A DNA stretch of 64,000 bases from a virus. Taxonomy: Duplodnaviria > Heunggongvirae > Uroviricota > Caudoviricetes. A program made the position numbers. The stretch is from IMG/VR virus record IMGVR_UViG_2534682157_000019; one strand, written 5' to 3'. Positions 21,001 to 27,000 of this stretch are shown here, in pieces (the first letter of the stretch is position 1; each line of letters starts with the position of its first letter).

Positions 21001-24000
21001 ACGCAGAAATTGCAACCTGACTTACAGGCCTGCCTTCACTGTCTTTTCCGGCGACAATCCCGATCCCCGCAGTGATACCATCAACTCCCGCTTTTTTTGA
21101 CCACATTGCCAGAAACGCCTCACCGCCTTCTTTATCCAGTTTAGTGATGCGCTTGTCGACCTCATTAAGCGATTCACTGGTTGATGAATCCAGTGTGCTA
21201 ATGCGGGTTTCAATACCACCAATCGTTCTTGTCGTTTCTTCCCTGAGAGTCCCCACAACTTCGGTTGTCTTAATTGCAGCATCCTTTACAGCCTGCCCCT
21301 GCGCGTTTTTTATTTCTTTACGCAGCTCGGACACAACCGGCGACTTTGCAGCCTCATCGCGGATCTGGTCAATGATGGCCTTCACGCCGATCTGTGTTTG
21401 TGCCTGAGTGCCTTTTTCAGCATTCCATGGACCTTTCACTCCTGCCGCGTTAACAAAACGTATCCAGTAAAATCCCGACCAGCCAGGGTCAACCGGATCG
21501 CCGTAAACCTGCCCCGGCGTCGTGGCAACCAGCACTGCATCAGCAAGGTCATCCTCCGTACCCCGCCAGATTTCAGTCAGTGAATGTCCGCGATAATTAG
21601 GCATATCCCATTCAAGAAGAACCGAGCCAAATCCTCCTGTCGCCTTAAAATTCAGCGGTTTTGTGGGAAAATCAACAGTCATTAAAGTACTGTCAATCTC
21701 AATACCCGGATTCAGTGCATATGAGGCACCACCCGATGTTCGACGCCGGGCGAGTTTAAGACCAACCAGTTCCTCACGGGTCACAAATGCGTGGCGTCCG
21801 TCACCACGCTGCCCGGTGCCAATTTCCATGTTCTCCACAACTGTGGATAAATCCTTCCCCGCACGCCACGGTTTTCTGGTCATACCGGCATCTCCGACAT
21901 CGATGTACTCAGGGTTATTCGTTCCACCTGCCCGAATCCGGATACCATCACCTGCCAGTTTTGCCCGGTTGCTGCCGGAAGTCTCACCACACTTCCCTTA
22001 AACGTACCCGGCGCAAAATGAATCACAGGAACATCATCAGCCATAATGGTGATCCCCACCCGCTCAGGCGCCGGAGATTTCACCCTGATACAGGAAAAAG
22101 AGGTTCTTTCAGGTAATGAAAAAATTTTTGAATGCCACCTTATCGTGGAGGGCAGAGAGCTCCCGGCAAGCACTGACATTTTGTCTCCTGTCACCACGCG
22201 CATCATATCTTTCGCGAGATCAACCCATGCGCAGTCAAACGGTGTACTGAGATAACGGATATCCATGTTCACCGGACTGAATACAAACACATCCTGCTTA
22301 CCATCCGGTTTCGTGTAACAGGCAATGTACTCACCACGCCAGGAATAAGCCACAATGGACGCCGGGTTAAACTGACTCTGCCACTGTTCAGGTGAAATAA
22401 TCTTTTCCGTTGCCAGTGCTGTATTACCGTTTACATCAACAGATACCAGACCGTTTGTCCCAGCATAGAGTACGAATCCCTCCATCGCCACCATACTTCT
22501 TCGGCTCAGGCATGCCTGCATGGAAGGAATTCTGGAGCCAGAAATTGTGGAAGGCGATACCCCACTGAACAGATAGGGCTCCCCCTTTGTCGCCACCACC
22601 AGTGACGTTCCCAGCGGACAGATAGCCACAATATCTTCTGCCGTCGTGTGACGATTCACTTCCGGCCATGCATACGGCAGATACGCTTCCGAAAACATCA
22701 CTTCATTACCGGCAAACCCGGCGGCAATACCATTAGCCATCAGGCAAAGGCCTGTCATATTCTCTGGCGGCGGCAGGTAATCCCATGTCGCCAGAGAAGG
22801 TCCAAGGTTTTTCCCCGGTATTTTGTCCGTGTAACTGAGCACGGATGCATCCAGTTCAGCCACAAGTAAAAAATCCGCTTCTCCTCCACCTGATGCAGAG
22901 CGATAAATCCGGCGGCGTTTAATACTGGCATTCTGCAATGGCACCGGAGACAGCGTCAGCTGTACCGCAGTCCCCGGAGTACGGAGTGTTACCTCCAGAG
23001 ACGCCGGACCTGGCGGACCTTCTTCACCATAATCTGAGACAAAGGTTTCCGTATAAAACCGGGTTTCGTCATCATTCGGGTTATCGTCAGAAACATCACC
23101 GCCCTGCTGAACAGTACAGACAGGTGCTGTCGTCGGCGCGGGGATCCCCAGACGATACGATGATGTCGGGTGATTCCCGTCCCCTTTTGTGGCAATGGTC
23201 GCATCCGTCACTTTAGGAAAACGCCCGTCAGTGTAGTAAATACGCCCGTGGGAGTCCTGAGCGACCGGACTGCGGATCACATCCACCACATCCGTCCATG
23301 CAAACCAGAAATCGTCACGGTAATGAAAAATGGTTTTCGGCTTAATCGCGAATGTTTTCTCAGCCTCTGACATCTGGTGTTCAGGCGTGATCACTCCATA
23401 GCGAAAATGACAGTTTTCTGCCAGTACAGCAGAATGATCTGGCAGCATAGATGCAATAACGCCTGGCATCATCCCGCGCATAGTTGTTATATCGATATAA
23501 GGCATGGTTGTCTGGTATCCGAAAATTTGAATGGCAGGTGAGTCACTGAATTGAAGTTTTAAAGGCGGCATACAATTGCGCCTGTGCAGAATACAGATTT
23601 CCAGAAATCTGAAAAATTACTCTTATCAGAGAAGAGCGTCAGAAACACGATCGGCATCACTGTTTCTGCAAACTTCCCTGTGGCAGTCTTTATTCGCCAT
23701 ATAACGTAGCACTAAAGGTCTTCATTAATTTTTCCATTGTAGTTACTCCTTCCTTGTACCGGGGGTTGGTCATGCCCCCGTTTTTTATTCCCTCTGCTCC
23801 TTTAATCGCACTGCCAGGCGCCACAACACACATCAACTGTGGCTGGTATGGAAACACCAAAAACTCTCACTTCCGGAAATCTGAAAAATTATCCATATCA
23901 ACAGGATGCGCCGGAAACATGATTTCCATCACATCCAGGCCTGCACTTTCCGTGACAGTATTTATTCGCATAGTAAATACTTCACAAGTGTATAATTGAC

Positions 24001-27000
24001 TCAGTTCATGGGGGAGGTGATGGTCCCCCATCTTTTTGTCTGTTATTCCTGTGCCCAGCCAACCCTGTATGCCAGTATCTCATCCGCACTGGTCAGCTTT
24101 TCCAGCACTTTCTTCATGGTGCGCTGCCGGACGTGGATTTCCATCCCTTTGGTGAACATCGCCTGCTCTGCCGCTTCACTCAGCGCTATAAGCTCTTCTG
24201 CTGTCACTTCCACATCATTGTTTTCCGCATCCGTCCAGAAAAACGCCTCCGGCAGTTTCCCCGCTTTCGCTGCAGCCACCGACGGCTCAAGACGCGTCTG
24301 CGTTGACTTCCCGTAGTCCCATTTACGCCCATTGTGCTCAAACGTGTAGTTCGCCGCTTCCATCGCATTACGCCAGGCGTTAATTTCATCGCCCTTCATC
24401 CCGCGCGCTTTCTCCGCGGTCAGCAGGTCCGTGATTTTCTCCCCGTCAAAGCCCCAGCGCCCGCTCAGGTCAATTTTCCGGCTCTCCGGGGTATCCGGCA
24501 CTTCTGCCACACTCTGGTTCACCGGCCACAACAAGGCAGTCTCCTTACCGTATCCCGTAATCACACCCCGGCTGTCATACACCACCTTCAGCGTCTCCGG
24601 CGAAAACAACGCCTGACACTCATACCAGTCCTGACCATCCTCAGACTTCAGGTACATCGCGCCTGCAACATCCGGCTCTGCCGGGGTGTAATACGAAAAA
24701 TTTCTGATATGCATCATGTTTCCGTGCCCTCCTCCGATACCGGCACCCAGACCGGCATTTTTTCCGCACCGACGCCCCGCTTCATACCTGCCGGTGCAGC
24801 ATCCGCTGCAAAGACTTTATACACCACATAATCCACCACAATACCGTCTTCCGGCCAGCGCCCTGCTGCCTCATAAACCGGCCGCAGGGACAGGGGATAA
24901 AACATATTCTCTGACGGTGAAAAAACATACTGTTCCATACAATGCCCTCAGTATCCGATCGCTTCCCATGAAAACTTGCCGTAGCATCCCCTGACTGTTA
25001 TCAGAGTCACAGACACTAATGACGGATTCGACAGGGTATACATCTTAATGACGTTGGGGTCTCCCACTGCAGACACCTGAGCATTCAGAGCAGCAACCGG
25101 AAAAGCGACAGGAAAACGGATAGAGTGTTGTGTCATAAGCTTACCATCATCCTCACTTACCTCAATACTGCCCCATTGCCGCAAACGACCGGTTACTTCA
25201 TCACGCTCCCAGCCATTTACTGTCAGGCTTGCTGTTGTGGGCTTGTTTTTTGTGCTGTAATCCACCCGCCAGTGAAAACGTTGTGTGTCTCCGTAAACTG
25301 TACAGGTACAGACCGTGCCGTTCAGAAAACCATCGCCACCGTATTCGCCGATGGTGACCCGGACTATGGCTGCGTTATACGTCCCCATCACCTCAATGGC
25401 GCAGCCTCCCAGATTGAGTTTTCCCGGTCCGACATCCGTGATGACCTTATTAAATTCCGCAAGCAGTGATGCCTTCATCATCCAGTAAGGCTGGTCAAAT
25501 GCCCCCTTTTCTTTCAGCCAGGCCACAAACTCACTCGTGGTCCATTCACCGGCCCCCGTATGAATGTCCCGCCCGTATACTCTGGCTGCTCCCACGGTGT
25601 TCAGAAACTTCACCTTATCCGGGATATCGTCACCGTTTTTCGCTTTCTCCAGGCATCCGTCCGCTTTGTCCATTGCCGCTTTCACCGCTTTCGGGGTGGC
25701 TGCCTTCGTTTCATCATCACTGTCCGTTGCGCTGCTTAACTGCACAATTCCCTTCTGTGCCGTCGTCGCATCAGCCACATTTGCAGCGCTGCCTGCCGGA
25801 CCTGGCTCTCCACGAGGTCCCTGACGGTCCGGTCTCTCCTCGTTCGCCTCTCGGACCTGCAGGACCAGGTTCACCTCGGGGGCCAGTCTCCCCACGCTCA
25901 CCTCGTGCTCCCATCGGACCCTGTGGTCCGGCTTCTCCTCGTTCACCTTTAGGACCTTGCGGGCCTGCAGGACCTCCCGGATCACCTTTCTCGCCTTTTG
26001 GCCCCATATCCCCCTGGTCCCCTTTAGGCCCCCGCTCTCCGGTATCCCCCTTCAGGCCTGGTATTCCCTGCGGTCCTCGCTCCCCCTGTTCGCCCTTCTC
26101 ACCACGCGGACCAGCGGGCCCTACAGCCCCCTGAGCACCAACGTCACCACGCTCACCTTTCGGCCCTGCGGGCCCTTGAGGGCCCACTGGACCTGTTTCG
26201 CCTTTAGGACCGACATCCCCCTTCGGACCAGTTTCTCCCTGAGGCCCCCGGGGCCCCCGTGCATTCTCAGCCATACGTCTGGCCTCTTCAGCACTGACAG
26301 TGGCAGCCTCTGCCCGCTTAAGGATCTCTCCGGCGCTCTCCTGCGCCAGCCTGGCCTTTTCAGCATGCTGTCTGGCTTTTTCTGCATCAGCTCCGGCGGC
26401 TTTTTCAGACTCTCCGGCACGGGTCGAGCTTTCCTCTGCATTCCCCGCTGCTGTGATTGCACGGGTCGCGGCCTCAGTGGCATCAGTCGCTTTTTGTCCG
26501 GCTTCAGCCGCCCTGCTGGTTGCCGTCTTTGCACTGTCAGATGCACTCTTCGCACTGGCTGCTGCACTTTCTTTTGACTGTGTGGCCTGAGTGTTTTTTG
26601 TCGCCGTGTCTTCATTCAGGCGACGAATAGTAGCAAGGTCATCAGCCACATTATTCTGTATCTGCCGGAAATCTGTCAGCAGCTCTCCGGGTATGCTCAC
26701 CTCAACAAGACTGCGGCGTAACAGCATATTGAGCGTCACCGTACTTTCGGTCCCCTCAATACGCACACGTCCGTAGACAGCAGTCTTCCCTTTCACCGTC
26801 ACCGAAACCGCATACTCCCCCGGATCCATCGTCATTCCGTAATATCCACCTTCACGGGTCACTGCCGACGCACTGGTGCCGCTGAGCGCATCCGGTGAAA
26901 CTGTCAGCGCCGTCAGGGTAATATTTGCTCCTGATATCGCCTCACCATCAGGAGATTTCAGCGTCCCCGAAACAACAACACTCACACTCCACCTCCGTTA

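Follow-up and report, generated by a model that had tools for sequence, protein, structure and literature searches.

Diverged copies of a putative terminator module at a tail-fibre cassette boundary in a Stx phage

What are the two repeated units that interrupt the minus-strand tail operon of the Caudoviricetes virus held in IMG/VR as IMGVR_UViG_2534682157_000019? Both lie in a gap (23572-24042) between minus-strand open reading frames (ORFs) at 21880-23571 and 24043-24717 of the 64,000-nucleotide stretch analysed here, hereafter the window, and an earlier note on this DNA had read them as two independently transcribed small RNAs (sRNAs) or regulatory elements. Virion and tail genes of the minus strand flank the gap (DUF4376/tail-fibre PHROG, internal virion protein PHROG and tail tip fibre), which bears out the placement of the interval inside the tail operon. 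This region of the window is 99.8% identical to Escherichia phage phiSTEC1589-Stx1c, an inducible, short-tailed Diegovirus that is integrated at dmsB and lysogenises K-12 (PMC12029490). We favour, with moderate confidence, the interpretation that the units are a duplicated convergent-terminator boundary module of lambdoid prophages, which would have been imported with a swapped tail-fibre cassette and would now be largely vestigial. The units are undescribed in the literature and databases searched, and their copies look like an ordinary recombination scar rather than new small-RNA genes.

The two units open and end alike. Their head motif, TTCCRGAAATCTGAAAAATTA, has exactly two occurrences in the window, both on the plus strand (23599-23619 and 23871-23891, spaced 272 nt apart), confirming the common start that had been described for them; 0.00 matches are expected in shuffled sequences even when three mismatches are allowed, and a search of the window for a third unit copy found none. 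Unit 1 (23599-23786, plus strand) comprises the head at 23599-23619, a non-coding body, a terminator hairpin at 23760-23780 and a run of six T (23781-23786). Unit 2 (23871-24037, plus strand) has its head at 23871-23891, a non-coding body, a hairpin at 24008-24031 and a run of five T (24033-24037), and ends 6 nt away from the opposite-strand DUF4376 stop codon. Each unit is ~170-190 nt long. The spacer between them (23787-23870, plus strand) was seen only with units in tandem and includes the CA-rich stretch CACAACACACATCAAC at 23822-23837; this stretch and a TATAAT box, at 23991-23996, are both present as first reported. Units 1 and 2 share 74% mean column identity in a MAFFT alignment and 72.8% over 103 nt by BLAST. 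The description of two tandem repeated units thus stands for the head, shared exactly twice, and for the plus-strand terminator-like end of each unit, but at ~73-74% identity the units are best regarded as diverged paralogues, and the term strict tandem repeat does not apply. Among related prophage loci, here labelled L and a number, unit 1 has orthologues in L045, L088, L119, L038 and L122 (88-96% identity), and unit 2 is 78-84% identical to its counterparts in L118, L123, L124, L125, L088, L122 and L038 (BLAST). A 12-nt motif, CC(R)GAAA(Y)NTGA, is found four times on the plus strand (23519-23530, 23601-23612, 23873-23884 and 23911-23922), one copy lying ~40 nt inside unit 2, and half-sites resembling TTCCGGAA are dispersed in all unit variants; the 12-nt repeat could be a protein-binding repeat or chance.

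Judged by structure and conservation, the plus-strand sites at both unit ends look like genuine intrinsic terminators, as the earlier note had proposed. Unit 1 closes with CGGGGGTTGGTCATGCCCCCG and TTTTTT (23760-23786), and unit 2 with ATGGGGGAGGTGATGGTCCCCCAT, a C and TTTTT (24008-24037). A consensus scan of 1 kb returned four terminator-like sites against 0.9 expected, both unit ends among them, and both unit hairpins are present in the minimum free energy and centroid folds. The terminator stems are identical across 14 variant copies and the loops vary in sequence and length, with loop differences seen in 5-6 variants per unit. All stem pairs are invariant G-C, hence the absence of any compensatory change, and this constancy of stems with variation of loops fits selection on the hairpins, on either strand. 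A same-strand gene upstream of the unit is present in the donor prophages (ykgJ-like, dinI-like or int), and the window has none.

Homology to other phages breaks at these same landmarks. P13374, representing the Stx-phage backbone, is 99.35% identical over 20059-23620, through a ykgJ fossil and the unit-1 head; its similarity is absent from 23621 and is back at 25669. Beyond its head, P13374 carries a different sequence without the hairpin, and in 17 Stx and Shigella phage records the similarity is limited to query positions 1-61, which correspond to the fossil and head. The intervening cassette, unlike the P13374-type backbone, spans 23621-25668 and holds the unit-1 body, the spacer, unit 2, the DUF4376 gene, a tail-fibre assembly gene and the C-terminal part of the tail fibre. 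Within it, the unit-1 body and spacer are ~88% identical to L119, L122 and L038; a 97.4% match to the lambdoid prophage L118 covers 23869-25772, beginning at the unit-2 head; and unit 2 is of the L120 type (98.9% identity) with an adjoining DUF4376 gene of the L118 type. Because the breakpoints between P13374, L118 and L120 types fall at unit landmarks, the heads and hairpins appear to be the switch points of the closest relative. A 104-nt conserved patch in the tail-fibre gene also coincides with a relative switch.

The sequence preceding the unit-1 head is the remnant of a captured gene. It comprises the last ~45 nt of a ykgJ-like gene (23568-23612, plus strand, stop codon TGA at 23610-23612) and overlaps the opposite-strand deposited start of a 563-aa gene; ~36 of 45 positions equal the L118/L119 3' end when compared by eye, and BLAST gives 80-82% identity over ~50 nt. 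In L118, L119 and L120, an intact plus-strand YkgJ-family coding sequence (CDS) terminates at the TGA within the head motif. Prophage and K-12 ykgJ share 81% identity (258/317, nt 1-317 of 330), and homology ends 13 nt short of the stop codon (prophage ...AKYGLTPL* versus K-12 ...AKYGLPEI*). The region downstream of K-12 ykgJ has its own terminator, unrelated to the unit, and a search of the K-12 ykgJ surroundings found nothing resembling the unit. With homology lost 13 nt before the stop and an unrelated K-12 downstream region, an origin of the unit as the native ykgJ 3' untranslated region (3'UTR) was therefore ruled out. The junction indicates that a captured host ykgJ was fused to a pre-existing phage module, with the last three codons and the stop coming from the module. 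Chromosomal segments have been captured at the corresponding end of prophages in Shiga toxin-producing E. coli (STEC) (PMC8112680). One of them, attB-in-PP_2, likewise consists of chromosomal DNA from the ykgJ region, captured by lambdoid prophages at their accessory end (Nakamura et al. 2021, PMC8112680); it is intergenic and comes from upstream of ykgJ, whereas the units follow the captured ykgJ CDS and have no similarity to the K-12 locus outside that CDS.

Copies of the module occur in a small fraction of complete E. coli genomes. Matches to the full interval were found in 164 of 5426 complete E. coli genomes (~3%), at 332 places. Both units, scored by the unit-1 body and spacer, occur in only 23 of the 5426, and the unit-2 type alone occurs at 276 places in 127 genomes (no more than six in any one of them), which are mostly from non-O157 STEC and ruminant isolates; the O157 Sakai and EDL933-type genomes seem to be without units. 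No unit copies were found in a plasmid search, head-motif scans of viral contigs and species-representative genomes returned mostly or only chance matches, and extended unit matches were not found in representative genomes of other species. Four real unit copies came from a metagenome scan, each belonging to the E. coli prophage type. Across all loci examined, the unit has its terminator end next to a DUF4376 or tail-fibre gene, at the 3' end of that gene, and in L118, L119 and L120 the unit spans from the ykgJ-family TGA to the DUF4376 stop. The head side is more variable, facing decayed ykgJ copies in some loci and a dinI-like fragment in others (phage 1720a-02 has the order int (+), dinI-like (+), ykgJ fragment, unit, DUF4376 (-)), and at other prophage ends a host gene or decayed cargo (yfhH, potB, tRNA-Ser and ompW). 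L119 shows the tandem form with the upstream gene retained, in the order ykgJ, unit 1, spacer, unit 2. In the same locus (E. coli Z1323MEC0001), an IS66-family element at L119 positions 3398-6200 interrupts unit 2 at the potB-side prophage end.

These contexts point to a native place for the module just past the last side-tail-fibre gene (DUF4376 or tail fibre), where a strong intrinsic terminator would face the tail operon and would stop transcription converging on it from a ykgJ copy, a dinI-like gene, int or host read-in; we infer that the hairpins terminate transcription in vivo. In lambdoid phages, the lambda tI region being one example, convergent transcription units at the tail-fibre end, both accessory ('moron' or b-region) and int, are closed by intrinsic terminators. 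The units resemble tI-type terminators in their GC hairpin and T-run between the last late gene and opposed int or accessory genes, in their position at the prophage end and in travelling with neighbouring genes, a likeness drawn by position and not by sequence. They differ from tI-type terminators in that this phage has two copies of the module, left between virion genes that share a strand, where there is nothing for it to terminate, and, unlike lambda sib, the units are without a long RNase III-type stem.

The direction and order of recombination that we infer would be as follows. The phage would have gained its foreign tail-fibre cassette by homologous recombination, most simply as a single exchange, with one crossover in the ykgJ fossil or head, already on the Stx-phage backbone, and the other in the tail-fibre gene, within the 104-nt conserved patch. 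Both unit copies would have been transferred because the module of the donor (ykgJ, unit 1, spacer, unit 2, DUF4376) was tandem, and the plus-strand client genes would have stayed behind. The units would be vestigial in their present position, where the most they would do is keep stray antisense transcription out of the tail genes. The modular theory of phage evolution places conserved linker or boundary sequences at the module junctions of mosaic lambdoid phages. Like such linkers, the short patches here (ykgJ fossil and head, hairpin, and 104-nt tail-fibre patch) lie at relative switches; unlike such linkers, they are captured-gene and terminator relics and not dedicated recombination sites, and no recombinase site was identified in them.

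Several observations weigh against a vestigial terminator module. Non-coding DNA of ~470-540 nt is much for a viable, capsid-limited phage to keep, and in several contexts the units are still found in tandem, at 88-96% identity. The upstream plus-strand gene is absent here, leaving a terminator with no obvious client. The region folds better than shuffled sequences on both strands (z -1.8, -2.9 and -3.7), the CA-rich stretch on the plus strand is predicted to pair with GcvB nucleotides 56-100 (R1) at -35.5 kcal/mol, a value matched by 4 of 200 shuffles, and the matrix behind the promoter results given below is crude and models sigma-70 only. If the terminator-module interpretation is true, the locus is a clean example of Stx phages exchanging host-range (tail-fibre) cassettes through short shared patches, a captured host gene fossil on one side and a conserved tail-fibre stretch on the other, with a terminator module dragged along and stranded, and it would help the reading of prophage mosaicism in non-O157 STEC.

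That the units are plus-strand small regulatory RNAs, whether stand-alone or derived from the 3'UTRs of ykgJ or dinI mRNAs, with terminators as their ends, perhaps Hfq binding, and variable segments as seeds, is unlikely on the evidence assembled here. Such RNAs would have good Rho-independent terminators with 5-6 U, and the unit body alternates near-identical blocks with replaced segments, somewhat like the variable 5' and conserved 3' parts of AgvB and AsxR (PMC4104026). The A-rich head can be read by eye as ARN-like triplets, and two C-to-U changes in the unit-2 5' hairpin keep pairing on the plus strand only (n = 2, not significant). The GcvB pairing counts in the same direction; against it, the CACAACA core is lacking in three of the five other variants, and the CA-rich stretch comes after the unit-1 terminator, without a promoter preceding it. 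None of the 11 variants has a promoter above shuffle level (sigma-70 matrix, both strands: best score 8.5, with shuffles at a median of 10.0 and a 95th percentile of 13.4), no sigma-70 site conserved in position was found across them, and a consensus promoter scan gave two weak sites against 1.3 expected. The TATAAT box lies 12 nt ahead of the unit-2 hairpin; its ATAAT core is conserved, and it was rejected as a conserved promoter, having no -35 element, an inconsistent TG and a hairpin too near. A start from it could give only a ~35-nt hairpin RNA because the box sits 12 nt before the hairpin without a -35. The plus-strand gene that would supply a precursor is absent from the window.

Structure and family searches also argue against sRNA genes. 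RNAalifold on the 14 copies, a small and shallow sample, gave 11 pairs, none with changes on both sides, and recovered the terminator, a head helix of 3 bp, another helix of 4 bp and nothing else; no pairs covary outside the terminator. A mid-body hairpin is possible in each variant, but out of register between variants. Rfam covariance models (AgvB, AsxR, Esr41, STnc100, sok and others) applied to 23300-24300 found nothing at the gathering score, and what they returned at E <= 10 was at chance level, with the same outcome for the L118 copy, and the proposed scan for known prophage sRNAs thus yielded no family match even at that threshold. Probes for PasA-D, taken from table S6 of PMC8550237 as a proxy for the published RNAs, had no matches with up to three mismatches in the whole window. 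The proposal of two independently transcribed sRNAs, for which these searches and the promoter and covariation results all came back empty, was accordingly not upheld.

Comparison with described prophage RNAs leads to the same position. AgvB and AsxR, prophage anti-sRNAs of enterohaemorrhagic E. coli (Rfam RF02702 and RF02703), are 51-60 nt long; their primary 5' ends have been mapped, and both sit at the PR' moron site by stx (Tree et al. 2014, PMC4104026). The units are similarly prophage-borne and opposed to the late operon, with a terminator at the end, and the CACAACA GcvB-target motif of AgvB is present here at 23822-23828; unlike in AgvB, the CA-rich stretch lies ~170 nt before the next terminator and is non-conserved. 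Identity with AgvB or AsxR was rejected, since position and size differ and no model matches even at E <= 10. PasB, an 83-nt prophage sRNA in a phage structural operon of enteropathogenic E. coli E2348/69 (PMC8550237; bioRxiv 10.64898/2026.05.13.724894), shares with the interval a non-coding stretch within a block of phage structural genes; PasB is an RNA gene. PasA, PasC and PasD are located near Q/holin, and identity with any of PasA-D was rejected on this position and on the absence of all four probes. A bolder form of the RNA interpretation would make the units an undescribed family of riboregulators at the tail-fibre end of STEC prophages, with a plus-strand RNA made from ykgJ or dinI 3'UTRs or from weak or non-sigma-70 promoters, an A-rich Hfq-binding head, swappable segments and, in the tandem form, a CA-rich GcvB sponge as in AgvB; we hold this to be very unlikely. 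The units would add to the phage sRNAs that rewire host networks only if they were proved to be expressed riboregulators.

A function on the minus strand is improbable. The GC hairpins, read in the late polycistronic mRNA, would stabilise the tail-fibre message by blocking 3' exonucleases or by serving as processing landmarks, and a weak hairpin and U5 beside each head would be a leaky late terminator. All pairs of the GC hairpins are G-C, giving equal stability on both strands; one hairpin begins 11 nt past the DUF4376 stop codon, the minus-strand fold has a z of -3.7, and DUF4376 is the last late gene in lambdoid prophages, so that an mRNA 3' end must form nearby. On the minus strand, hairpins also precede ATTTTTCAG in both units (CTCTT/AAGAG and ATCC/GGAT). 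These head-proximal hairpins are, however, only 4-5 bp and AT-rich, with minus-strand C·A mismatches breaking them in L038-type copies, and the conserved T-runs sit after the GC hairpins on the plus strand and not on the minus strand. In lambdoid phages, late transcription is antiterminated through Q. A terminator reading of the minus strand consequently adds little, and the terminator module on the plus strand remains the interpretation we prefer.

We regard it as highly improbable that the interval encodes minus-strand small proteins, the candidates being the 54-aa and 47/56-aa frames, both deposited in phage record PQ600364, and a 15-aa peptide, MEKLMKTFSATLYGE, preceded by a strong Shine-Dalgarno sequence. 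Two minus-strand 'hypothetical proteins' are deposited for the interval in PQ600364, the 56-aa ORF matches phrog_35908 (E 1e-42), and AAGGAGT stands 7 nt ahead of the ATG of the 15-aa ORF. That ATG or its Shine-Dalgarno sequence is gone in L088 and L122. The 54-aa frame (unit 2) stops after 11 codons in L118, the commonest related type, and the 56-aa frame is shortened to 26-37 codons in L038, L122 and L119, three of the five relatives, and is open in L088 only by way of three frame-shifting indels. The ORFs occupy non-homologous positions in units 1 and 2, substitutions are without enrichment at third codon positions, a Pfam search of the interval ORFs found no family, and PGAP called no gene in the interval on identical chromosomal copies. 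Small minus-strand proteins, including a type I toxin, were rejected on these grounds, and the earlier judgement that the interval is non-coding is borne out by the interrupted frames and the blank PGAP annotation. The ORF that phrog_35908 (55 aa, function unknown) matches at 23690-23860 on the minus strand crosses a terminator hairpin and is non-conserved among related copies; the family was probably built on a spurious gene call. The gain for annotation is that the two deposited 'hypothetical proteins', and the PHROG family on one of them, are probably not genes.

Scarcely credible is a last explanation, which takes the units for secondary attachment sites (attB-in-prophage) or for attL/attR sequences left by a former element: at STEC prophage ends there are indeed attB copies of chromosomal origin, including one from the ykgJ/ecpE region (PMC8112680), and the units are direct repeats opening with a ykgJ-derived junction, but attB-in-PP_2 comes from the other side of ykgJ, upstream, and was rejected as an identity with zero similarity to the interval, positions 23300-24060 have no similarity to K-12 yagU-ykgJ-ecpE at E <= 0.01, neither an integrase nor an element lies between or beside the units, and the sole insertion into a unit among the loci examined is the IS66 element of L119.

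The genes on either side belong to the cassette and to the backbone. On the cassette side, the DUF4376 tail-fibre-module gene (24043-24717, minus strand, 224 aa) matches Pfam PF14301 (E 7e-17) and phrog_11571, tail fiber protein (E 1e-147). On the other side, the internal virion protein gene of the Stx-phage backbone (21880-23571, minus strand, 563 aa) matches phrog_511 (E 2e-277), with the alignment running from residue 19. PGAP starts this gene 66 nt inside the deposited start (ATG at 23571). Judged by the PGAP call and by where the PHROG alignment sets in, its true start is probably the ATG at 23505. The non-coding gap would then probably extend over 23506-24042 (537 nt). The deposited ATG at 23571 falls within the ykgJ fossil.

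Known RNA families are found elsewhere in the window. The STnc100 family has two adjoining full-length matches on the minus strand (41111-41324 and 41386-41597; 198 and 139 bits, gathering score 47). The Rfam sok antitoxin RNA matches at 4018-4192 (+), and a separate Hok/Gef-family gene lies, by homology with the annotated record, at ~18502-18642 (-), where no sok match was obtained at the gathering score. Matches to C4 antisense RNA and isrK are adjacent (46980-47063 and 47089-47162, both minus strand). An arrangement of the C4-isrK type controls antirepressor genes in P1/P7-type immunity regions and in some lambdoid prophages. The sRNA-Xcc1 family matches twice in opposite orientation ~45 kb apart, at 765-853 (+) and 46048-46138 (-), with 71 and 69 bits.

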